DNA from: Escherichia coli
GTDB taxonomy: Bacteria > Pseudomonadota > Gammaproteobacteria > Enterobacterales > Enterobacteriaceae
Direction: 5' to 3' (one strand)
Length of the DNA: 64,000 nucleotides
NCBI RefSeq assembly: GCF_013122565.1
Contig: NZ_CP053258.1
A program made the translations under genes and the position numbers. The notes beneath the pieces were generated by a model. The model worked only from the letters and a program-made list of their open reading frames with translations, made no database searches and was not told where the DNA came from. Positions 6,432 to 44,493 of this stretch are shown piece after piece. The first letter of the stretch is position 1. Each line of letters opens with the position of its first letter.

Positions 6432-8321
6432 ATGGCTGAATTCGAAACCACTTTTGCAGATCTGGGCCTGAAGGCTCCTATCCTTGAAGCCCTTAACGAT
6501 CTGGGTTACGAAAAACCATCTCCAATTCAGGCAGAGTGTATTCCACATCTGCTGAATGGCCGCGACGTTCTGGGTATGGCCCAGACGGGGAGCGGAAAAA
6601 CTGCAGCATTCTCTTTACCTCTGCTGCAGAATCTTGATCCTGAGCTGAAAGCACCACAGATTCTGGTGCTGGCACCGACCCGCGAACTGGCGGTACAGGT
6701 TGCTGAAGCAATGACGGATTTCTCTAAACACATGCGCGGCGTAAACGTGGTTGCCCTGTACGGCGGCCAGCGTTATGACGTGCAATTACGCGCCCTGCGT
6801 CAGGGGCCGCAGATCGTTGTCGGTACTCCGGGCCGTCTGCTGGACCACCTGAAACGTGGCACTCTGGACCTCTCTAAACTGAGCGGCCTGGTTCTGGATG
6901 AAGCTGACGAAATGCTGCGCATGGGCTTCATCGAAGACGTTGAAACCATTATGGCGCAGATACCGGAAGGTCATCAGACCGCTCTGTTCTCTGCAACCAT
7001 GCCGGAAGCGATTCGTCGCATTACCCGCCGCTTTATGAAAGAGCCGCAGGAAGTGCGCATTCAGTCCAGCGTGACTACCCGTCCTGACATCAGCCAGAGC
7101 TACTGGACTGTCTGGGGTATGCGTAAAAACGAAGCACTGGTACGTTTCCTGGAAGCGGAAGATTTTGATGCGGCGATTATCTTCGTTCGTACCAAAAATG
7201 CGACTCTGGAAGTGGCTGAAGCTCTTGAGCGTAACGGCTACAACAGCGCCGCGCTGAACGGTGACATGAACCAGGCGCTGCGTGAGCAGACACTGGAACG
7301 CCTGAAAGATGGTCGTCTGGACATCCTGATTGCGACCGACGTTGCAGCCCGTGGCCTGGACGTTGAGCGTATCAGCCTTGTAGTTAACTACGATATCCCG
7401 ATGGATTCTGAGTCTTACGTTCACCGTATCGGTCGTACCGGTCGTGCGGGTCGTGCTGGCCGCGCGCTGCTGTTCGTTGAGAACCGCGAGCGTCGTCTGC
7501 TGCGCAACATTGAACGTACTATGAAGCTGACTATTCCGGAAGTAGAACTGCCGAACGCAGAACTGCTGGGCAAACGCCGTCTGGAAAAATTCGCCGCTAA
7601 AGTACAGCAGCAGCTGGAAAGCAGCGATCTGGATCAATACCGCGCACTGCTGAGCAAAATTCAGCCGACTGCAGAAGGTGAAGAGCTGGATCTCGAAACT
7701 CTGGCTGCGGCACTGCTGAAAATGGCACAGGGTGAACGTACTCTGATTGTTCCGCCTGATGCGCCGATGCGTCCGAAACGTGAATTCCGTGACCGTGATG
7801 ACCGTGGTCCGCGCGATCGTAACGACCGTGGCCCGCGTGGCGACCGTGAAGATCGTCCGCGTCGTGAACGTCGTGATGTTGGTGACATGCAGCTGTACCG
7901 CATTGAAGTGGGCCGCGATGATGGTGTTGAAGTTCGTCATATCGTTGGCGCGATTGCTAACGAAGGCGACATCAGCAGCCGTTACATCGGTAACATCAAG
8001 CTGTTTGCTTCTCACTCCACCATCGAACTGCCGAAAGGTATGCCGGGTGAAGTGCTGCAACACTTTACGCGTACTCGCATTCTCAACAAGCCGATGAATA
8101 TGCAGTTACTGGGCGATGCACAGCCGCATACTGGCGGAGAGCGTCGTGGCGGTGGTCGTGGTTTCGGTGGCGAGCGTCGTGAAGGTGGTCGTAACTTCAG
8201 CGGTGAACGCCGTGAAGGTGGTCGTGGTGATGGTCGCCGTTTTAGCGGTGAACGTCGTGAAGGCCGCGCTCCGCGTCGTGATGACTCTACCGGTCGTCGT
8301 CGTTTTGGTGGTGATGCGTAA
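6432..8321 (+). CDS. deaD: DEAD-box cold-shock RNA helicase DeaD/CsdA (629 aa)
   Basis: [33 protein letters not shown]…, GSGKT and DEAD motifs, RGG/RD-rich C-terminal tail; start chosen at MAEFETTF within track ORF 6366..8321. Confidence 0.93.
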
Positions 8322-8363
8322 TCATCGCTGAACAGCGAAAACAATCTGTAAAATAATATATAC

Positions 8364-8396
8364 AGCCCCGATTTTAACAATCGGGGCTTTTTTTCT
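8364..8396 (+). terminator. deaD rho-independent terminator
   Basis: agccccgattttaacaatcggggct followed by a T7 run. Confidence 0.6.
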
Positions 8397-8474
8397 GTCT
8401 TTTGTACTCGTGTACTGGTACAGTGCAATGCATAACAACGCAGTCGCACTATTTTTCACTGGAGAGAAGCCCTC

Positions 8475-9719
8475 ATGGCAACACTAACCACCACCCAAAC
8501 GTCACCGTCGCTGCTTGGCGGCGTGGTGATTATCGGCGGCACCATTATTGGCGCAGGGATGTTTTCTCTGCCAGTGGTCATGTCCGGTGCGTGGTTCTTC
8601 TGGTCAATGGCGGCGCTGATCTTCACCTGGTTCTGTATGCTGCATTCCGGCTTGATGATTCTGGAAGCTAACCTGAATTACCGAATCGGTTCGAGTTTTG
8701 ACACCATCACCAAAGATTTGCTGGGCAAAGGCTGGAACGTGGTCAACGGTATTTCCATTGCCTTTGTGCTCTATATCCTGACCTATGCCTATATTTCTGC
8801 CAGCGGTTCGATTCTGCATCATACCTTCGCAGAGATGTCATTGAACGTCCCGGCACGGGCAGCGGGTTTTGGTTTTGCACTGTTGGTGGCGTTTGTGGTG
8901 TGGTTGAGCACTAAAGCCGTCAGCCGCATGACGGCGATTGTGCTGGGGGCGAAAGTCATTACCTTCTTCCTCACCTTCGGTAGCCTGCTGGGGCATGTGC
9001 AGCCAGCGACATTGTTCAACGTCGCCGAAAGCAATGCATCTTATGCGCCGTATTTGCTGATGACGCTGCCGTTCTGCCTGGCGTCGTTTGGTTATCACGG
9101 TAACGTGCCGAGCCTGATGAAGTATTACGGCAAAGATCCGAAAACCATCGTGAAATGCCTGGTGTACGGTACGCTGATGGCACTGGCGCTGTATACCATC
9201 TGGTTGCTGGCGACGATGGGCAACATCCCTCGTCCGGAGTTTATCGGCATCGCCGAGAAGGGCGGTAACATTGATGTGCTGGTACAGGCGTTAAGCGGCG
9301 TGCTGAACAGCCGTAGTCTGGACCTTCTGCTGGTCGTGTTCTCAAATTTTGCGGTAGCGAGTTCGTTCCTCGGCGTAACGCTGGGCCTGTTTGACTATCT
9401 GGCAGACCTGTTTGGTTTTGACGACTCAGCCCTGGGCCGCTTTAAAACGGCATTGCTGACCTTTGCCCCGCCTGTCGTGGGTGGCCTGCTGTTCCCGAAT
9501 GGATTCCTGTACGCCATTGGTTATGCTGGCTTAGCGGCTACCATCTGGGCGGCAATCGTTCCGGCACTGCTGGCCCGCGCATCGCGTAAACGCTTTGGCA
9601 GCCCGAAATTCCGCGTCTGGGGCGGCAAGCCGATGATCGCGCTGATTCTGGTCTTCGGTGTTGGCAACGCACTGGTGCATATCTTATCGAGCTTTAATTT
9701 GCTGCCGGTGTATCAGTAA
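8475..9719 (+). CDS. mtr: Tryptophan-specific permease Mtr (414 aa)
   Basis: Track ORF; polytopic membrane protein [44 protein letters not shown]…; synteny. Confidence 0.95.
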
Positions 9720-9729
9720 TCAGCGGTGC

Positions 9730-9820
9730 CTTATCCGACATTTCTGCTGCCTACACAATGCCTGATGCGCTTCGCTTATCAGGTCTACGTAGGACAGCGT
9801 TGCCAGCTCGGATAAGGCTT
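9730..9820. repeat. REP/BIME cluster downstream of mtr
   Basis: gccttatccgaca … gcctgatgcgcttcgcttatcaggtctacgtagg … ctcggataaggc palindromic units. Confidence 0.5.
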
Positions 9821-9836
9821 CCCGCGTTAAGACACA

Positions 9837-10844
9837 CTATCCCAACAACTCTTCCTTAACATCCATCGCCAGCTCAAACGAATGCAGGCGCGCCTGGTGG
9901 TCGAAAATCTGCCCGTTAACCATAATTTCATCGGCGTCGGTTTCGCGCAGGATCGACTGCAAACCATGACGCACTTTCGCTTTATCGCCCACCAGCGACA
10001 TGCTCAGCGCCTGCTGCACGCCATACTGCTCAGACGGTGACCAGAACTGATCCATATTTTGAATCGGCGGCGGCAGTTGCCCGGTTTCGCCACGGCGTAA
10101 CTTCACAAAGGCTTGCTGCATTGAGGTAAACAGAAATTCAGCGTCGCGGTTGCTGTCGGCGGCGATAATATTGATGCACACCATCGCGTATGGTTTCTCC
10201 AGCCGAGCCGACGGTTTGAAGTTGCTGCGATAAAGATGCAGCGCCTGGAACAACATATCCGGCGCGAAGTGTGAGGCAAACGCAAACGGCAGACCAAGCT
10301 GCCCCGCCAGTTGCGCGCTGTAAAGGCTGGAGCCTAACAACCACACGGGGATTTTCTCGCCATAGCCCGGCACTGGGCGCACATGCGGATTGGGATCGCG
10401 GGCGTCAAACCAGTCCACCAGCTCCGCGACATCGCGGGGGAAATTATCAATATCGCCGCTCATATGACGACGCAGCGCCATCATGGTTCGCTGATCGCTA
10501 CCCGGTGCACGACCCAGCCCCAAATCGATTCGCCCCGGATAGAGCGTATTGAGTGTGCCGAACTGTTCGGCAATCACCAACGGTGAGTGGTTAGGCAACA
10601 TCACGCCGCCGGACCCAAGATGCAGCGTGGTGGTATTCGCCGCCAGATAGCCAATTAACACAGACGTTGCAGCACTGGCAATGCCGGTCATATTGTGGTG
10701 TTCCGCCAGCCAGTAGCGATGATAGCCGCGCTTTTCAGCCAGACGGGCGAGATCGAGAGAGTGGGAGAATGCTTCTCGTGCTGAAGAACCTTCGGGGATG
10801 GGGGCCAGATCGAGTAGCGAAAACGCAATGGTTTTATCAGTCAT
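9837..10844 (-). CDS. yhbW: Luciferase-like monooxygenase family protein YhbW (335 aa)
   Basis: Track ORF; synteny adjacent to mtr; translation [51 protein letters not shown]…. Confidence 0.9.
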
Positions 10845-36241: not shown

Positions 36242-36576
36242 TATTCGTCGTCGCCAATCTCATCATCAATGTTGACGTCCATGCCAGCGACAAGTTTCTT
36301 TCCTTGTTGAATGTCGAATGGACGAGTTTTTTGCGGGTTGTTCTGGATATCTGCATCCAGAAAACGCAAAAATGCATTCATAGTATGATCCTCCTGTTCA
36401 TCTCCCAGTCGGCACATAAATACTTGCCCACCAGGCAGAATTTCGTAATGAATGTTGTCCAAGCCTGGCTTCAGTTTTAAGGCCTCACGCACTGGCGCGG
36501 GGATAGTTGTTTGTCCGCGTATCGTGACCTTTGATTCAGTGGTCAGTACAGCGTGAGAGCGAGCATTAGCGGGCAT
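36241..36576 (-). CDS. prlF: Antitoxin PrlF (SohA), 111 aa
   Basis: MPANARSHAVLTTESKVTIRGQTTIPAPVREALKLKPG…; stop overlaps the yhaV ATG by 1 nt (TAATG); within track ORF 36241..36717. Confidence 0.9.
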   Translation of the reverse strand: MPANARSHAVLTTESKVTIRGQTTIPAPVREALKLKPGLDNIHYEILPGGQVFMCRLGDEQEDHTMNAFLRFLDADIQNNPQKTRPFDIQQGKKLVAGMDVNIDDEIGDDE

Positions 36577-36630
36577 TAGGCACTTTACTTTTACAGCCTG
36601 TTTTCTGCTCAAATTATAAGCTTCAGCAAA

Positions 36631-36650
36631 GTAATGCAAATGCATTATTA
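36631..36650. promoter_or_regulatory. Palindromic operator upstream of prlF (probable PrlF-YhaV autoregulation site)
   Basis: taatgca-N-tgcatta perfect inverted repeat about 60 nt upstream of the prlF start. Confidence 0.5.
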
Positions 36651-37064
36651 GCAGCAGAAAGCGCCAGAACCAACGAAAAAAGAGAACATGTTTCCCATTT
36701 TGCGAGGCGCTTTCCAAATCGTCCGCTCAGTCCCCTCGCACGCCAGCGCTAAAACCACTATTTTGCAAATCTGTGACCTCCTTCACTCTCCATAAAGGCG
36801 GTGATCTAATGGTGTGGATCCACTTTCTGCTTTCGCTTGTCTGCCGTAAGCACTCGCTATTTCGTCATCTCTCCTTTTCACTTTTTCAGTTTGTCATTTT
36901 CATTTGCGGTCAACCGAAAGATCTGGAGTCGATTTTTCCAGGTTTCAACGCCGTTGTCGGGTTCACAAATTCACTTCTTTTCTTCTGATGTAATGCATTC
37001 AAAAGAAAATGAAAGTTTCAAAATGCAAGAATGCAACGAAATACTTTTTCAGGGAGCGATTAAC

Positions 37065-37835
37065 ATGCTAGATAGCCTAAGACGCCGCGAACAAATCATT
37101 GATTTGTTATGTGCCCAGGGAAGCGTACGCGTTGAGCCGCTCAGCATCCATTTTGGTGTCTCATCGGTCACGATCCGCAATGACTTACGGTATCTGGAGC
37201 AAAAAGGTTGCGTCATGCGTTCCTATGGCGGTGCCGTGTTGAATCAACACTTTGCGCTCGACAGACCCTTGCAGGATAAAGATCGCCTTAATCGAGATGT
37301 TAAAGTGCGAATTGCCGAAAAAGCAGCCAGTTTTGTCAAGGATGGCGATACATTAATTATCGATTCTGGTTCAACGACCACGCTAATTCCAGCTTCGCTA
37401 AAGGGGCGTCGGGATTTAGTCGTTATGACGAATGCCTTGAATATCGCCTGGGAAATGGCCAGTTTTGAACGGGTGGATGTTATGATCCTTGGTGGAAACG
37501 TTCGCCAGAGCGTCTTCTCCCTGTATGGGCCTTCGGCAGAACATCAACTCCGGCAGTATCGCTTTGATAAGCTGTTTCTGGGCGTGGACGGCTTTTGCCT
37601 TGAAGCAGGGATTACCACACCACATCCGGGTGAGGCACATCTGAACCAGGTAATGTGTCAGGTTGCTCAGGAAATCACAGTTGTCGCGGACTCCAGTAAA
37701 TTTGGCCGGAAAAGCTTCTGTATGATCGGCGAAGTGAGCGAGATAGATCGACTGATTACCGATAGTGGTATTCCGGATAATTACAAACACGCATTAACGC
37801 AAATGGGTGTGGAAGTTGTGATTGCAGATGAGTGA
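37065..37835 (+). CDS. DeoR-family regulator, AgaR paralog (256 aa)
   Basis: ATG at 37065 preceded by cagggag; HTH …VSSVTIRNDLRYLEQKG… nearly identical to the AgaR recognition helix; DeoR C-terminal domain. The track ORF 36837..37835 is an upstream extension. Confidence 0.8.
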   Translation: MLDSLRRREQIIDLLCAQGSVRVEPLSIHFGVSSVTIRNDLRYLEQKGCVMRSYGGAVLNQHFALDRPLQDKDRLNRDVKVRIAEKAASFVKDGDTLIIDSGSTTTLIPASLKGRRDLVVMTNALNIAWEMASFERVDVMILGGNVRQSVFSLYGPSAEHQLRQYRFDKLFLGVDGFCLEAGITTPHPGEAHLNQVMCQVAQEITVVADSSKFGRKSFCMIGEVSEIDRLITDSGIPDNYKHALTQMGVEVVIADE

Positions 37836-37879: not shown

Positions 37880-38791
37880 TTACGTTGTATGTTTGATTTG
37901 CAGTAAAGCCGCGCCTCGTACGCCGCTTGTCGCCCCATGAACGGCAGAAAATACGCGCGCAGGTTCCAGACCCGGAAGAAGGTAGCGCGTCATGGCTTTC
38001 GGCAATAAGGCATAAATCTCTTTAAAATTAGACAACCCACCGCCAAGAACAAATGCATCAACGTCGAGAATATGCTGCAATTGCGCCAGTGTACAACCAA
38101 CCATGTCTATCCAGGCGTTTATAGTGGTGATAGCACTGGAAATGCCATGTTGATGATTTTCTAATAATGTCTCCATAGTGATTTGCTCACCGCTGAAATG
38201 CTTATGTAACCAGAGCAAACCAGGGCCAGACTGGTAGCGTTCCACACACCCTTGCAAACCGCAGCCGCATTGTAATTCAGGAAGGTTATAGCGCCGCATA
38301 AATGTCGCCGGGAGCGGTAAATGACCAAACTCGCAGGCCATACGGTTACGGCCACGGTATAACTGGCCATCAATAACTAATCCCCCGCCCATACCCGTGC
38401 CGATAATCGCGCCAAAGATCCGGCTATATTGACGAGCTTGATCGGTATGCGCTTCTGATAGGGCGAAGCAACAGCAGTCATTATCCATTATTACCGGGCG
38501 GTTAAGGCGATTTGCCAGATCGGTTAATACCTGGCGTCCGGTCAGGCAGGGAACGTTAGAAGACAACAGTTTACCGGTGTGCCGATCCATAACGCCGGGC
38601 ATCCCGATACCTATTTTGCCTTGCGTACCCGTGGCCCAGTCAGCGGTATCAATCAGAGACACAAATGTGGATAGAAAAAGCGCGTAATCCTGAACAGGCG
38701 TAGCCACCCGCTTGCGCCAGCAAATTTGTAAATCCTGATCAAAGGCGACTATCTCTGTTTTGGTTCCGCCAATATCAACACCGTAAAACAT
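37880..38791 (-). CDS. ROK-family sugar kinase, NagK-like (303 aa)
   Basis: MFYGVDIGGTKTEIVAFD… N-terminal ATP-binding motif; Zn-binding CxCGxxGC motif (CGCGLQGC); same length as NagK. Confidence 0.8.
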   Translation of the reverse strand: MFYGVDIGGTKTEIVAFDQDLQICWRKRVATPVQDYALFLSTFVSLIDTADWATGTQGKIGIGMPGVMDRHTGKLLSSNVPCLTGRQVLTDLANRLNRPVIMDNDCCCFALSEAHTDQARQYSRIFGAIIGTGMGGGLVIDGQLYRGRNRMACEFGHLPLPATFMRRYNLPELQCGCGLQGCVERYQSGPGLLWLHKHFSGEQITMETLLENHQHGISSAITTINAWIDMVGCTLAQLQHILDVDAFVLGGGLSNFKEIYALLPKAMTRYLLPGLEPARVFSAVHGATSGVRGAALLQIKHTT

Positions 38792-38809: not shown

Positions 38810-40066
38810 TCACAGCACAACCAGGGTATTTTCCTTGCGAGCGCGTTCGGCGGCAAAGACCATCAGGTGACTTTCAAGTGATTCATTGGGGCCTGAGAGG
38901 ATCAGGTTTTGATCGCCCGCTAATACCGCCTGAATAAAGCGATCCATCAGATAGTAATCCCCACCACCGTGACCCCCCATTTGGGTGCGATTACCCGCTT
39001 CGATCTCCTCAATGGTGTATATAGTTTGCTGGTCGGTGAGAAAATCAAAACACCGAATGGTGTTGCCATCCCCTTCCAGATAGCCTTTCGAACCAAAAAG
39101 GCGGGTTTTGCGATCTTCCATTTTCGTAAAGGCCGTCATTGTAAAAGTGACGCTCTGCTGATGCGCAAATTGCATGTTGACCACTTGATGATCGACAACA
39201 TTGTTATCGCAGCAATAAACGCAGCGACCATAGGGACCGTCACGTAGCGACTGACGAACGTTTTCTTCTGTGGGGTTTGCCGTTAACACGCGACGGAAGT
39301 GAGGCGTACATTTATGGGCATCACCAAGATAAATTTTGCATGCGGACCACGGGCAGGTAGCTTCGACCTGGCAATCAAGGCAGCGATCGGCTGCACCTTC
39401 GGGCTGGTTTTGCTTAATAAAATGGTTAAGGCCGCCAAATGAGGTAACACTTTTACAATTATCCCCCATGATGTAGCGGATCCAGTCCAGATCGTGGCAA
39501 GATTTTTGCAAAAGCATAAATGACGATTCAGCTTCGTTGCGCCAGTTACCACGTACAAAAGAGTGTGCCTGGTGCCAGTAACCGACGGGTTCGAGATGCT
39601 GCATACTGATAATGTCGCCAATGATGCCGCTGTCGAGTAAGGATTTGAGTTTTTGTGTATATCGGGTGTAACGAAGAACATGAGCCACCGCTAATAACAC
39701 ATGATTGCGTTTCACGGCATCAATAATGATACGGCAATCTGCAGCTGTCGGTGCTAACGGTTTTTCCAGCAGGATATGATATCCCAAATCAGCAAATGCA
39801 ACGGCAGGCTCTTTATGCATATTGTCTTGCGTACAAATGAGGACTACATCAGCCATTTTGGGGGCTTTTGCAGCTTCTTTCCAGTCACTAAAAATATTGT
39901 CTGAAGAGATATTATGCTGGGCTACAAATTGCTCTCGATAAACCTCTCTGGGTTCAGCAACACCTACAACTTGCATTCTGTCTGGATGTTCAAGAGCATA
40001 ACGGGAATATATTTCCCCTCGTGCACCTGCACCTATCACTAAAACAGAAACTTTGTTTTTATTCAT
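38810..40066 (-). CDS. Gfo/Idh/MocA-family NAD(P)-dependent oxidoreductase with an unusual Cys-rich segment (about 418 aa)
   Basis: N-terminal Rossmann motif VLVIGAGARG; C-terminal alpha/beta domain; Cys cluster CLDCQVEATCPWSACKIY…CTPHF…CVYCCDNN. Start taken at MNKNKVSVLVIGAG within track ORF 38810..40093. Confidence 0.7.
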   Translation of the reverse strand: MNKNKVSVLVIGAGARGEIYSRYALEHPDRMQVVGVAEPREVYREQFVAQHNISSDNIFSDWKEAAKAPKMADVVLICTQDNMHKEPAVAFADLGYHILLEKPLAPTAADCRIIIDAVKRNHVLLAVAHVLRYTRYTQKLKSLLDSGIIGDIISMQHLEPVGYWHQAHSFVRGNWRNEAESSFMLLQKSCHDLDWIRYIMGDNCKSVTSFGGLNHFIKQNQPEGAADRCLDCQVEATCPWSACKIYLGDAHKCTPHFRRVLTANPTEENVRQSLRDGPYGRCVYCCDNNVVDHQVVNMQFAHQQSVTFTMTAFTKMEDRKTRLFGSKGYLEGDGNTIRCFDFLTDQQTIYTIEEIEAGNRTQMGGHGGGDYYLMDRFIQAVLAGDQNLILSGPNESLESHLMVFAAERARKENTLVVL

Positions 40067-40104
40067 GGTGAAAAGACCTTCTGATAAATTCATCTGCTTG
40101 TTTT

Positions 40105-40863
40105 TTATAAATTACGAAAACTAACAAGATGAAATCCGCGTTTTTCAATCTCATATTTGAGTGACGACGTAGTCAGAACTGCTAGTTCTTCCAGTCGTTG
40201 GTAGCAGTAACTGCTCAACATTAAGGGGGTATCGATAAACCCTGGGTGACACATAATTTCCAGAGACTTATCATTAGTTTTTATGGCTCTATCAATAAGT
40301 GACAAGAAAAAGTCTTCTGAAATATTCTCATCGTAGAAATCACTGCTGAACCCATCACTACTTTTTACATTCCGCGAATCGATGTTTTTCTCTCGTAAAA
40401 CGGAACGGTCGATACGTAACGGTAAATTTTTCTCACGCGCGAAACGAGCGACGATGGGATAAACCTGCGGGATCATATGAACGCTGTGATGGCTGTCTAA
40501 ATGGGTGGGCTCCCGTTTAAATACATCAATAAAACGTTGATATTGAGAACTCAGTTCCTGTTCAATTTCGCCTAGGTTTAATTGCCCTTGCTCCGCAACC
40601 TCCCAAATCCATTTACCTAATCTACCTTCACGTGTCAGTGAAGGCATATCCGTTAAGGCAGCGCCATAGCTCAAAACAAAATGTAAACCGACGCCGAGTT
40701 GTGGGGTTTCGGCACTCAACGAGGCGGCATGATCAATTGCCGGAGCGTTCATCATCGCTGTTGTTGAGCGAACCACGCCATTCCGTACCGCCTCGATGAT
40801 TCCATAATTAATACCTTTGCTTAGTCCAAAATCGTCCGCATTCACAATTAATAAGCGTTGCAT
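40105..40863 (-). CDS. YdjC/ChbG-family carbohydrate deacetylase (252 aa)
   Basis: [25 protein letters not shown]…; conserved HxDSHH-type motif ([10 protein letters not shown]). Confidence 0.8.
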
Positions 40864-40875
40864 AAGGTATCCTTG

Positions 40876-42228
40876 TTACTGATGAGATTGGGTAAGTTCA
40901 GCAATAGTGCTGGAAAATTGAGGTAGATGTTTTTTATGGGCAATGATCAGTTCACGCACTAATTTTTCAGCGTCGTTATCCGAGGTCATTAGCGGGTTAA
41001 GACACAGAGCCAGCAGCGTATCGTTAAAGTTACCACTTATTGCCGCCCGGGCTGCCGCAATCTCAAAACATTTGATTGAATGAATGAGCCCCAGTACATT
41101 TTCGTCAAAATGAGTGAGACGCGGGTGGGGGGTAACACCGTTATTCCCCAGAATGCAGGTCATTTCAACGGTCCAGTCTTCAGGGATATTTTTTACACTG
41201 CCCTTGTGTGGAATATTAACGTAGTGTTCTGTTTGCGTGTCATTATAAATTGCATTAATAACGGCACAGGCTGCATCTGAATAATACGCACCACCACGCA
41301 GATCCAGTTCTTCAGGTTTTGTATTTAGTTCTGGGTCCTTATACAGCTCAAATAATTTCTTCTCTAATGCCTGCACGACTTGTGCACGAACGCCATTTTT
41401 ATAAAATTCCCCCATCTCAATGGCGAGCATTTCTTTATGTTTAAAATAGTAACGTAAGTAAGCACAGGGCAGGAGATTAAGTGCCCGAATTAAATTAGGA
41501 TTGAAGGTTAAACTGTCAATATTTTTGACGGTACTTCCTTCAAGCAGACCTTCAACGACGCCATCGAGCAATTCAGCAAAACGTGATTGTCCATTGACCC
41601 ATACGTCTTTAAGAAAGACCATATGATTTAAGCCAAATATGTCTATTGAAAGATCATCGTCCGCGCCAAGTTTTAGGGCATTGCGAACGAAGCTCTTCAT
41701 CCCAACAGGGACATTACAGACACCGATAAACCGTTTAAATTGGGTATGGCGGTACACGGCTTCAGTGACCATCCCGGCAGGATTGGTGAAATTAATAATC
41801 CAGGCATCGGGGCAAAGTTCTTCTACATCTTTGATAATATGAAAGATCACGGGGATGGTACGCAATCCGTTGAATAAACCGCCTGCGCCATTGGTTTCTT
41901 GCCCCAGATATCCCTGACTTAGTGGCATCAACTCATCCATTTCCCGCGCTTTTAATTGCCCGACCCGAAACTGTGTGGTGACAAAGTGCGCGCCCTGTAA
42001 TGCTGTGCGGCGGTCCAGGGTTTTCACTATTTTTAACGGAATGCCTGCTTTGACTACCATTCGCTGACAAAGGTCGAAAATAATGTCCAGCTTTTCTTTG
42101 CCTTCTTCAATATCAACTAGCCATAATTCACTGACCGGTAATTCATCGTAGCGTTTTATGAATCCTTCAAGGAGTTCTGGCGTATAGCTACTGCCACCGC
42201 CAATAGTAACGATTTTTAAATTTTTCAT
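40876..42228 (-). CDS. Glycoside hydrolase family 4 6-phospho-glycosidase, ChbF-like (450 aa)
   Basis: MKNLKIVTIGGGSSYTPEL… NAD-binding N-terminus; GH4 length and motifs. Confidence 0.85.
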   Translation of the reverse strand: MKNLKIVTIGGGSSYTPELLEGFIKRYDELPVSELWLVDIEEGKEKLDIIFDLCQRMVVKAGIPLKIVKTLDRRTALQGAHFVTTQFRVGQLKAREMDELMPLSQGYLGQETNGAGGLFNGLRTIPVIFHIIKDVEELCPDAWIINFTNPAGMVTEAVYRHTQFKRFIGVCNVPVGMKSFVRNALKLGADDDLSIDIFGLNHMVFLKDVWVNGQSRFAELLDGVVEGLLEGSTVKNIDSLTFNPNLIRALNLLPCAYLRYYFKHKEMLAIEMGEFYKNGVRAQVVQALEKKLFELYKDPELNTKPEELDLRGGAYYSDAACAVINAIYNDTQTEHYVNIPHKGSVKNIPEDWTVEMTCILGNNGVTPHPRLTHFDENVLGLIHSIKCFEIAAARAAISGNFNDTLLALCLNPLMTSDNDAEKLVRELIIAHKKHLPQFSSTIAELTQSHQ

Positions 42229-42305: not shown

Positions 42306-43667
42306 TTAAAACTTCAACGCATTTGCTATATCTTCTTCGCTTTCTTCTTTATTAATTTCGACTTGTGCTTTGTTTGAGATAATGACAAAGGGAAGATAAA
42401 CCATTGTGGCAACACCTAAGTTAAAGAGTGCCAGGAGTAATCCAGCAATGCTCCCATTTGAACTGAAGAATGCATTAAGTCCAGGGGGCATGGTCCAGGG
42501 GGCGATATTTGTTGATGGCGGAATAATACCCATGTTATAGGCGATTAAGGTAATCCCGGCGAGAATGGGTTGAATCATCACAAACGGAATTAACATAATG
42601 GGATTCATAATGATCGGCAAACCAAATAAAATAGGTTCGTTGATATTAAAGATACCAGAAGGTAACGCTAATTTAGCAACCTGACGATAATCCTCCCGGC
42701 GTGAGGCAATGAAAATAGCGAAAATGAGTCCCAGCGTTGCTCCTGTTCCACCGAGGAATACGTAAGCGTCAAGCATTGGCCCGGTCCAGAAATGGAAGGT
42801 TTTTCCTGCTTCCAGTGCCGCTTGTACCGAACCATATTGTGTATAAGTCGCAATATTTTCCAGACCCCAGGGACCCAGCGTGCTGCTTTGTAACGCAGTT
42901 AATACTAAACCGCCGTGGATACCAAAGAACCATAACAGGGAATTAAAGACAACGAATGTCCAGCCAACAATACTGCTCATTGACGTTAATGGCGTAGCCA
43001 GTGAGGTGATAATGACCTGATGGAAATTGGTGCCATATATCGACAATATGCCAGATAAACTCCCCATAATTAACAGGATAATAAACCCAGGCACCATTGC
43101 CGAGAATGAGCGTGATACTGCTGCCGGGACACTCGCGGGTAAACGAATCACCCAGTTGCGACGGATAATAAAAGCGAAAATTTCCGCTACAACTAATCCA
43201 ATGATCATACCAGACAGGATATTGGCTCCCCCCAGCCAGTTTGCGCCAATGACATTAGCAGTTTCTCCTGCTTTGAAGGGGGTGACGGTCATAAACGCTG
43301 CGACAGAGAGTAAGCCAACGGATAACGAATCAACTTTCCGTTCTTCGGCCAACCCCATCCCAATAAAAAAGGGGGTCATGAGTGACATAATGCCCAGCGT
43401 GCCATGATAAGCACTGTCACCGACGACGGTGAAGGCGCTTAAGGTTTTTATGGTCGATGGTTCCAGTCGGACGCCTAATGAATAAAAAAAGGAGCCTTCG
43501 CCAAAATCTAAAAAAACGCTATTAATGAGAACAAATAACGTACCGGCTAACGTTAATGGCATCATACGGATAAAACCGTTTTTTATTGCATTGACGTGAG
43601 GTTGTTTCCCTAATTTAACTGCAAAAGGAAGAATGAGTTTTTCAAGTAACGCCATCACTCCGGGCAT
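42306..43667 (-). CDS. PTS lactose/cellobiose-family EIIC permease, ChbC-like (about 450 aa)
   Basis: Polytopic membrane protein; conserved IIC core (…[22 protein letters not shown]…[11 protein letters not shown]); the exact start may be a few codons downstream. Confidence 0.85.
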
Positions 43668-43741: not shown

Positions 43742-44059
43742 TTACTTCTGTTGTTTTTTTATCATGGCAATGGCAGATTTTAATACGCCTAAACCATCAA
43801 TTTTCCCATATAACATTGAATCTATAACTTCCACTGGCTTTCCAGGTAATAAGCTTTGGATCTCTGATTGCATATAAGCAATTTGCGGTCCTAATAATAT
43901 AACATCAGCTTCCGGACCTTTCTCTGCAGCAACAGATTCGGAGAATGCTTCAATAATTACCGGCACATCATATTTTATTGCCTGCACTTTCATCTTAGAA
44001 ACTAGCAGAGATGTTGACATTCCCGCCGAGCAAAATAAATATATTCTTTTCTTTTCCAT
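43742..44059 (-). CDS. PTS lactose/cellobiose-family EIIB, ChbB-like (105 aa)
   Basis: [23 protein letters not shown]… with the phospho-acceptor Cys in the CSAGMSTS motif; start chosen within track ORF 43742..44122. Confidence 0.85.
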
Positions 44060-44493
44060 AGGGACTCCGGATATATTAAGGTATAATATATTTGTCATGC
44101 CATAAATGGCATATAATGCCACTTATAATTAATAAAACACCGATTTTTATATTGATTTCCTGAATGTCGTCTTTAGGTATTAATCTCAGGAGTTTCAGGA
44201 ACCATTGAATAATCTGGTTTATAGAATTGAATGTCAAGTTAGTGAAATGGTGGGAGTGCGGTAATAAAAATAGTGCGGCTTTCGGTTGGTTTCTTTTTTA
44301 TCAGAACGAAAAGTACAGTTAAAATGATTTCTGGATAAATTGAAGTTTTTTCAATGAATTACATTTTTGTCTGCCCGTGGGAATGAAAAAAACAATAATC
44401 AAAAAATACTTTAGATATGTGAGCGTTATCACTTCCTTTTTGTTGGGAAAACGGGGAAACACAGTCTCCCCATTTTCCGTTCATGCGAGGTCG

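Follow-up and report, generated by a model that had tools for sequence, protein, structure and literature searches.

A cytoplasmic Gfo/Idh/MocA subfamily with four invariant cysteines, represented in an Escherichia coli amino-sugar island and possibly acting as an NAD+-assisted glycoside hydrolase

Among enzymes of the Gfo/Idh/MocA fold, SqgA of glycoside hydrolase (GH) family 188 is a sulfoquinovosidase that uses nicotinamide adenine dinucleotide (NAD+) as a cofactor, with Lys107 and His193 holding O3 and His321 contacting O1 (PMC10755693). The two histidines superpose on His259 and His404 of a GH109 N-acetylgalactosaminidase, and Glu163 of ArSqgA takes the position of Tyr226 in AmGH109A (PMC10755693); the title of Teze et al. 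2020, cited in the same paper, places the GH109 acid/base residue in a conserved 'GGHGG loop'. Here, we consider a gene of this fold in Escherichia coli (RefSeq assembly GCF_013122565.1, contig NZ_CP053258.1), which lies in a stretch of 64,000 nucleotides that was analyzed as a whole and is referred to below as the window. Its product, the Gfo protein, is cytoplasmic and belongs to a large Gfo/Idh/MocA subfamily. We propose, with a probability of roughly 0.45, that it is a redox-neutral, NAD+-assisted hydrolase that releases N-acetylgalactosamine (GalNAc) or galactosamine (GalN), a reading that is favored because the conserved residues match those of the NAD+-cofactor glycosidases, namely SqgA and the GGHGG loop of GH109. 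These known enzymes oxidize the sugar transiently, with hydrolysis as the net outcome.

Of the described systems, the Gfo protein may well work most like SqgA and GH109, as judged from sequence, and it is assigned to neither. With SqgA (PDB 8QC2, 8QC3, 8QC5), it shares the fold, the cytoplasmic location and a place in a sugar-catabolic cluster, and the 'K-x-C-H-x-x-D' helix, the G-R...D-N strand and the H-G-x-x-Y-Y loop of SqgA are all matched. The two proteins are, however, only ~19% identical, SqgA has no insertion with four cysteines (Cys4), and its context is sulfoquinovose rather than GalNAc/hexosamine catabolism. The sulfonate triad of SqgA (Arg166, Lys172 and the Leu170 backbone) and its Tyr136 are not retained either, as the Arg of 'EHR', taken as the sulfonate-binding Arg166, corresponds to V161 and Tyr136 to L131, and only the Lys taken as Lys172 has a basic counterpart, R172. 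Glu189 of SqgA corresponds to Q187. GH109 enzymes (Elizabethkingia NagA, 2IXA; AmGH109A, 6T2B) have the fold, the NAD+ cofactor and the link to GalNAc in common with the Gfo protein, which carries a literal GGHGG ~52 residues from its C-terminus. Unlike in GH109, the position of the Tyr general base appears to be held by Glu, as read through SqgA, and similarity is found in the NAD domain only. GH109 enzymes are described as secreted, whereas the Gfo protein has no signal peptide, and the sources that we read report no Cys4 insertion for GH109. NanY/YjhC and RgNanOx, which act on 2,7-anhydro-N-acetylneuraminic acid (PDB 6O15, 6Z3B, 6Z3C), resemble the proposed enzyme in their net-neutral NAD cycle and in the 'H-E/D-L-D' active-site helix but differ in their sialic-acid substrate and context and in lacking the Cys insertion; homology to them does not run over the full length, as the hhalign alignment covers residues 8-211 only.

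Active-site residues and proposed mechanism

Across 124 subfamily sequences (37-55% identity), K102 of the EKP motif, E159, H191-D192-x-D194, N288, R319 and H366 are each conserved in 117-124 cases (Table 1). When the subfamily profile was aligned to ArSqgA with hhalign, the match extended over the whole length (341 columns, probability 96%, E 4e-9) and paired K102 with Lys107, E159 with the Glu of 'IVEH' (assumed to be Glu163), H191 with His193 (in 'EKCCHFFD') and H366 with His321. The sequence used for ArSqgA had been read by machine from the supplement of PMC10755693, with numbering that is off by 1-2. Equivalents of the GH188 catalytic set (Lys107, His193 and His321, plus Glu163) are, according to this alignment, all present in the Gfo protein. 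The GGHGG loop of GH109 is likewise found, as GGHGGGD at residues 364-370, its equivalence being transitive, from H366 to SqgA His321 to GH109 His404. In control alignments, both NanY/YjhC and the putative dehydrogenase YdgJ aligned to the subfamily profile only up to residue ~211. YjhC is likewise an enzyme of oxidation-elimination-hydration chemistry. By eye, its segment YGHPGK, ~70 residues from the C-terminus, lines up with the H366 loop, and the matching segment of YdgJ, PGNYPAYY, contains no His. The subfamily profile aligned to the GH109 structures 2IXA and 6T2B at positions 4-154 only (E 6e-8 and 2e-6, respectively), and a search of the PDB with the C-terminal 230 residues alone returned no GH109 chain.

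In the mechanism that we propose, bound NAD+ would transiently oxidize the C3-OH of the glycoside, aided by K102 and H191. The C2 proton would then be removed and the anomeric substituent eliminated, with H366 in the GGHGGGD loop serving as the acid/base residue, after which water would add back and NADH would re-reduce C3, such that the net reaction would be hydrolysis. The product would be a free sugar of the hexosamine type, with GalNAc or GalN as the most probable candidates; its phosphorylation by the ROK kinase of the neighboring gene would lead into the AgaA/AgaS/tagatose pathway, whose genes lie close by. In E. coli, we conjecture that the chb-like phosphotransferase system (PTS), ChbG and GH4 proteins of the island import and trim a larger N-acetylhexosamine (HexNAc) glycoside, with the Gfo enzyme finishing the remaining GalNAc-glycoside.

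As a separate observation, R172 (codon 39551-39553) is conserved in 123 of the 124 sequences and aligns with the Lys of SqgA 'LHK', taken as the sulfonate-binding Lys172. Given this position, R172 may contact the C6 substituent of the sugar.

The full open reading frame (ORF) of the gene spans 38810-40093 on the minus strand and encodes 427 residues; the 418-residue protein considered here corresponds to a start at the second Met (M10), as annotated for the orthologue in E. coli R32_14_1F. The N-terminus opens straight into the Rossmann strand (MNKNKVSVLVIGAGARG), and a signal peptide is therefore lacking. The standard N-terminal Rossmann fold named in the initial annotation is borne out by Pfam (PF01408, E 6e-20), which also recognizes PF22725 and PF02894 in the C-terminal region. 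A GxGxxG Rossmann domain, the EKP motif and a C-terminal alpha/beta domain together place the protein in the superfamily, and G12, G14, R16 and G17 are kept in an alignment of 24 homologues (58-89% identity, many phyla). No NCBIfam equivalog was matched at its cutoff, the best partial matches, all far under cutoff, being UDP-GlcNAc 3-dehydrogenase, IolG and levoglucosan dehydrogenase. When the C-terminal part was compared with Pfam, no GH109-specific or other model was matched even at E<=10. A regulatory role like that of Gal80 was considered and rejected in view of the invariant catalytic residues and of a Gal80 Pfam match that is under cutoff.

At E<=1e-30, the subfamily comprises 868 clusters (50% identity) from many bacterial phyla and Thorarchaeota, with members in strict aerobes (Streptomyces, Deinococcus), in anaerobes and in archaea. 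The names met for these proteins in our sources were all generic ('Gfo/Idh/MocA family', 'predicted dehydrogenase' and one borrowed inositol-dehydrogenase label). In our literature search, no paper was found to describe the Cys4 subfamily or a Gfo/Idh/MocA enzyme that is Cys-rich or contains zinc or Fe-S, nor did we find one about a cytoplasmic, NAD-dependent GalNAc-ase of the kind proposed here. The Asgard homologues, from metagenome-assembled genomes of Thorarchaeota (loci L016, L017, L019, L021-L023, L027 and L032), are 52-56% identical to the E. coli protein. This is unusually high for such a distance and suggests either horizontal transfer or strong constraint. Their neighbors (methyltransferase and URO-D-type genes) bear no relation to amino-sugar catabolism.

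The cysteine-bearing insertion

The Gfo protein contains 13 cysteines (3.1% of residues), eight of which fall within residues 229-286 (C229, C232, C238, C243, C253, C282, C285 and C286). C229, C232, C238 and C282 are invariant in the 24 homologues and nearly so in the 124 sequences (Table 1), while C286 is kept in at least 90% of the former and in 80/124 of the latter. The remaining three are specific to the E. coli protein: in the 24-homologue alignment, Lys or Arg takes the place of C243, and the 124 sequences mostly have a gap (63 sequences) or Gly (38 sequences) at position 253 and His, Glu, Arg or Lys at position 285. In the subfamily, the spacing follows C-x2/3-C-x5-C, then x37-91 and the fourth Cys, with the C232-C238 spacing being 5 in 109 sequences. 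This pattern, with four invariant cysteines at fixed short spacings in a non-secreted protein, is that expected of a Cys4 metal-binding module.

The initial annotation had drawn attention to an unusual cysteine cluster and had suggested a metal- or Fe-S-binding element that is not typical of the family. The peptide is indeed present and C229, C232, C238 and C282 are conserved, but C243, C253 and C285 are not and C286 is only partly so; with four of the eight listed cysteines conserved in homologues, the suggestion withstands the alignment, and we found no characterized subfamily to which these cysteines belong. Given the four invariant cysteines and an insertion with no counterpart in solved structures, a metal-binding element atypical of the family is very likely.

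The insertion itself is ~60-80 residues long, and the segment from residue 212 to 292 measures 75-128 residues across the subfamily (median 81). In the hhalign alignment with ArSqgA, residues ~213-243 and ~255-277 have no partner. PDB sequence and profile matches to the Gfo protein end at residues ~201-222, and Foldseek comparison with solved structures gave a TM-score on the query of at most 0.68; in these searches, no counterpart of the insertion was found in any solved Gfo/Idh/MocA structure. In the AlphaFold2 model, the predicted local distance difference test (pLDDT) value is 66-88 across the insertion.

As judged from conservation, C229, C232, C238 and C282 would bind one metal as a Cys4 staple. 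A single metal site is favored because the four invariant thiols occur in a cytoplasmic protein, across aerobes, anaerobes and archaea. Structural Zn is our first choice for the metal, which would anchor the insertion on a strand of the core that runs close to the active site, beside the substrate-binding G-R motif. An analogy is offered by the structural Zn(Cys)4 lobe of medium-chain alcohol dehydrogenases, in which four cysteines are also found on an inserted loop of an NAD enzyme; this analogy concerns the metal site only, as the fold is unrelated, the motif spacing is different and the metal of the Gfo protein is itself predicted.

A redox-active [4Fe-4S] cluster in place of structural zinc, which would be compatible with any catalytic reading, is possible, if somewhat unlikely. 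All four ligands are Cys, with no His or Asp substitution in the 124 sequences, and C-x2-C-x5-C-P with a distant Cys resembles part of the cluster motif of endonuclease III-type proteins and Cys-Pro is common in ferredoxin motifs. However, the spacing between the first two cysteines varies between 2 and 3 residues, the subfamily occurs in strict aerobes as well as in anaerobes, and no flavin or second redox partner is present, while a redox-neutral cycle needs no electron transfer. A Cys4 structural zinc on a surface lobe has, moreover, a good precedent in the medium-chain alcohol dehydrogenases.

Gene neighborhoods and competing explanations

To place the subfamily in its genetic context, we considered 85 loci of Gfo homologues. 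For high-GC loci, gene calls were made with a filter on third-codon-position G+C (GC3) and with the target gene forced; the calls for actinobacterial neighbors are noisy, and one neighbor cluster (c21) is probably an artefact of antisense calls. In 19/85 loci, a ROK gene is present at a distance of at most five genes from the Gfo homologue, and in 14-18, components of ATP-binding cassette (ABC) importers are. In gamma-proteobacteria, Ktedonobacter and actinobacteria, the Gfo gene is followed by a ROK kinase gene, and in other lineages by an APH- or GHMP-type kinase gene, usually together with a nucleotidyltransferase gene. The adjoining importers are of the CUT1 type, with a binding protein that resembles oligosaccharide binders, and the recurring order is importer, Gfo and kinase for a free sugar. 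As the downstream partner is a sugar kinase, the product would be a free, unphosphorylated sugar.

Genes of the galacto-specific tagatose route are found near Gfo in at least three phyla. In Photobacterium, an ABC importer is followed by Gfo, an AgaR-type DeoR regulator, ROK, KbaZ, AgaS and the aga PTS; in Serratia, the order is GH123, ABC, Gfo, ROK, DeoR, AgaS and KbaY. A metagenomic contig resembling a gamma-proteobacterium carries KbaZ-AgaS-KbaY-ABC divergent from Gfo-ROK, followed by DeoR, and Ktedonobacter has DeoR and then Gfo-ROK-AgaS-PfkB-LacD. On another contig, AgaS, ROK, an AgaA-type amidohydrolase and KbaY are divergent from Gfo. The beta-GalNAc-ase gene GH123 recurs in Nonomuraea, where a GH123 with CBM-type domains, ROK, Gfo, a substrate-binding protein (SBP) and permeases are found. 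In several other actinobacterial loci, only a ROK regulator and ABC genes were recognized around Gfo, the gene calls being crude.

At the same site between garD and agaR, Citrobacter werkmanii (L005 5730-13004) carries genes for an SBP, two permeases, an ATPase, Gfo, ROK and AgaR2, such that the four ABC genes occupy the place of the chbB-chbC-GH4-chbG genes of the window. From this exchange of the front end, it follows that Gfo-ROK-AgaR2 is the conserved module and that the chb-like PTS, GH4 and ChbG genes are one of two front ends.

The proposal of a hydrolase has some weaknesses that need to be considered when weighing the explanations below. The Lys of EKP and the His of HxxD are common to ordinary dehydrogenases of the family, so only the loop His and E159 discriminate, and the sole negative control for the loop His is one protein, YdgJ. 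SqgA Tyr136 and, as seen indirectly through the alignment of E159 with Glu163, the Tyr general base of GH109 are without match, sequence similarity to GH109 does not extend beyond the NAD domain, and the nearest PDB sequences are NanOx and YjhC, which are not glycosidases. The identity of the sugar is drawn from the gene neighborhood only, and neighborhoods are heterogeneous outside Proteobacteria, Actinobacteria, Ktedonobacter and Deinococcus. A Pfam scan of 131 neighbors from non-proteobacterial, non-actinobacterial loci revealed no dominant partner, with small recurrent sets of GHMP kinase (in 4), nucleotidyltransferase (in 3) and GH29 (in 3). The island of the window, finally, already has a GH4 glycosidase, and a second one would, we conjecture, need a substrate larger than a disaccharide.

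An ordinary NAD(P)-dependent sugar dehydrogenase or reductase, with net redox chemistry that makes or consumes a keto-sugar or oxidizes a hexosamine at C1, would represent the default chemistry of the Gfo/Idh/MocA family, with K102 and H191 as the standard catalytic pair and with dehydrogenases as the best partial (far under cutoff) NCBIfam matches. Nonetheless, we consider it unlikely, as the conserved neighborhoods lack genes for keto-sugar or lactone processing (lactonase, lyase, hydratase or aminotransferase), as the next gene, in the cases examined, encodes a kinase for a normal free sugar, and as the loop His and E159 match NAD-cofactor glycosidases, with the full-length profile match being to SqgA and not to YdgJ. 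The same downstream kinase and residues make a net redox step on a hexosamine phosphate, i.e., the keto-sugar formation or epimerization suggested in the initial annotation, something other than the best fit. That annotation had also taken the GH4 and deacetylase genes as functional clues, yet these are not conserved partners and are replaced by an ABC importer in Citrobacter. Its remark on the oxidation-elimination chemistry of GH4 was, by contrast, a good lead, except that this chemistry probably applies to the Gfo protein itself.

A distinctly improbable alternative is an intramolecular hydratase like NanY/NanOx, which would open an anhydro or otherwise masked hexosamine (e.g., 1,6-anhydro-HexNAc) to the free sugar through the same NAD cycle. 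YjhC/NanY and RgNanOx are the best PDB sequence matches (profile E 1e-21 to 1e-20), the YjhC segment noted above contains GH-x-G, and the contexts in which Gfo, nucleotidyltransferase and APH genes occur together resemble the MurU/AmgK salvage of cell-wall amino sugars. The similarity to YjhC stops, however, at residue ~211, and the CUT1 binding proteins indicate oligosaccharides or glycosides; moreover, we know of no natural source of anhydro-GalNAc that would explain the linkage to AgaR/AgaS/tagatose genes and to GH123. The weakest of the explanations, an epimerase that acts on a free N-acetylhexosamine (e.g., between GalNAc and GlcNAc at C4, via a transient keto intermediate with bound NAD) and feeds the NagK-like kinase, agrees with the similarity of the ROK kinase to GlcNAc kinases, with the actinobacterial loci in which only the importer and a regulator were recognized, which would be self-sufficient, and with salvage contexts that lead to a UDP-HexNAc-type product, but is highly improbable and was rejected as a leading model, as an acid/base His at the anomeric position is unneeded for C4 epimerization and as tagatose-pathway genes, kept in the same operons in Ktedonobacter and in the AgaS-ROK-AgaA-KbaY cluster beside Gfo, would be pointless after epimerization to GlcNAc.

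Some further observations concern the loci themselves. One protein cluster, of the GH29 alpha-L-fucosidase type, is represented in 7/85 loci, in six of these within five genes of the homologue and in several phyla (L008, L015, L033, L039, L046, L050), a hint that the substrate may ultimately come from fucosylated glycans of the host type. A carbon-nitrogen hydrolase gene (PF00795) is found near family members in two unrelated contexts, i.e., in Photobacterium (L002 1329-2150) and in a cluster of Gfo, nucleotidyltransferase, carbon-nitrogen hydrolase and GHMP kinase genes (L095 11120-12097); the enzyme may perform an amidase step on the substrate or aglycone. For Shewanella AgaR regulons, the supplement of PMC2996990 (2010) lists AgaK as a ROK-type GalNAc kinase and a secreted Gfo/Idh/MocA lipoprotein, AgaO, to which that supplement assigns no role. 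AgaO probably represents a different branch from the Cys4 subfamily.

The island in E. coli and its implications

The Gfo gene is the fifth of six genes in an operon on the minus strand (chbB-like, chbC-like, GH4, chbG-like, Gfo and ROK) with gaps of 12-77 nt, in line with its earlier description as part of a PTS/GH4 operon. The coordinates of these genes and of the motifs discussed above are listed in Table 1.

Table 1 Positions in the window of the Gfo/Idh/MocA-family gene, of its motifs and of the neighboring genes
Feature	Positions	Strand	Remarks
Gfo/Idh/MocA-family gene	38810..40066	-	418 residues, no signal peptide
NAD-binding Rossmann domain, residues 7-129, including G12-x-G14-x-x-G17	39680..40048	-	PF01408 match at residues 7-129
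E101-K102-P103 motif, catalytic Lys of the family	39758..39766	-	E101 124/124, K102 121/124, P103 123/124
K188-S-C190-H191-D192-L-D194, start of active-site helix	39485..39505	-	H191, D192 and D194 124/124
Cys-bearing insertion, residues 213-286	39209..39430	-	Uncovered by PDB matches
C229-x2-C232, predicted first two metal ligands	39371..39382	-	C229 123/124, C232 122/124; spacing 2 or 3
C238 (C-P), predicted third ligand	39353..39355	-	123/124; Pro next in 74/124
C282 in Y-G-R-C-V-Y, predicted fourth ligand	39221..39223	-	124/124; adjoins G-R dipeptide common to ArSqgA
G364-G-H366-G-G-G-D370 loop, proposed acid/base His	38957..38977	-	H366 117/124, G368 113/124, D370 121/124
ChbB-type PTS enzyme IIB (EIIB; start at M22 of ORF)	43742..44059	-	NF007796, 188.9 bits vs cutoff 157, residues 22-125
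ChbC-type PTS enzyme IIC (EIIC)	42306..43667	-	NF007634, 806.7 bits vs cutoff 760
GH4 6-phospho-glycosidase (NAD+-dependent family)	40876..42228	-	PF02056 and PF11975
ChbG-type (YdjC) chitin-disaccharide deacetylase	40105..40863	-	NF002559, 351.6 bits vs cutoff 227
ROK-family sugar kinase, NagK-like, 18 nt downstream of Gfo gene	37880..38791	-	PF00480, E 4e-60
AgaR-type DeoR repressor (AgaR2), second and island-borne, convergent with operon	37065..37835	+	NF040755 (AgaR), 362 bits vs cutoff 260, ORF residues 78-330

In a related E. coli genome, the EIIB gene is annotated as a 318-nt coding sequence and the GH4 gene as a 6-phospho-beta-glucosidase. The ROK kinase scores 310 bits with the NagK model, under its 380-bit cutoff, and its nearest solved structures are GlcNAc kinases (E 4e-75). 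When compared with a chb operon, the island has ChbB, ChbC and ChbG models above their NCBIfam cutoffs and a GH4 gene, while the regulator is AgaR-type and neither chbA nor chbR is found within the island. AgaR2 has 44% identity to the resident AgaR, as against 91% to its counterpart in Citrobacter. The two AgaR-type repressors, both AgaR by NCBIfam or annotation, lie 1.3 kb apart (34913-35722, resident; 37065-37835, island), and the island may cross-talk with the resident aga regulon.

The island measures 7.7 kb, lies between the aga (GalNAc) cluster and garD, and is a rare accessory element, being found in 3/5426 complete E. coli genomes at 92.4% nucleotide identity, while its flanks (garD/garP) are 99.2% identical to those of ordinary E. 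coli. The protein identities to the copy in E. coli R32_14_1F are 99.3% for ChbC, 98.4% for GH4, 98.4% for AgaR2, 96% for ROK, 89.2% for Gfo and 88.5% for ChbG. The divergence is thus a mosaic, and the chbG-Gfo patch (window 38810-40863, compared with R32_14_1F (L001) 8111-10168) looks, from these sequences, like the outcome of recombination or allelic replacement. Two ORFs (35777-36097 and 36241-36717), which we take to be the yhaV/prlF toxin-antitoxin pair, sit between agaR and the island in the window. The annotation of E. coli R32_14_1F (L001 5834-6365) leaves the stretch from agaR to the island AgaR2 without genes, and the island junction is therefore strain-dependent.

Upstream of chbB, an AT-rich region of ~430 bp (44060-44493) contains a promoter-like TTGACA-17-GATTAT (44237-44209). 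A search by eye for an AgaR operator upstream of chbB gave a single exact GAAAG/CTTTC element, which is not evidence of regulation; GAAAC/CGAAAG elements near the promoter-like sequence bear some resemblance to the CTTTC-type AgaR sites of the literature. Elsewhere in the window, G+C falls sharply to 0.346 at 52001-54000, compared with ~0.5 in the rest.

It is possible, though doubtful, that the subfamily forms a new NAD+-cofactor glycoside hydrolase family apart from GH4, GH109 and GH188, with a Cys4 metal-stapled cap (possibly Fe-S), and that it provides the kinases of amino-sugar catabolism and salvage with free GalNAc or GalN in organisms that range from E. coli to Asgard archaea. If true, this would explain the recurrence of Gfo/Idh/MocA genes in AgaR regulons. 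The gap that the present analysis addresses is that a very widespread subfamily carries only generic names among the sources that we met. If the Gfo protein is an NAD+-cofactor glycosidase, this small and unusual group of glycosidases would gain a metal-containing branch, the ABC-type GalNAc/GalN utilization loci would be supplied with the step that they lack after import and before phosphorylation, and the common label of 'dehydrogenase' or 'inositol dehydrogenase' would be corrected. In E. coli, the island would extend the aga (GalNAc) regulon toward more complex host- or chitin-like amino-sugar glycosides.

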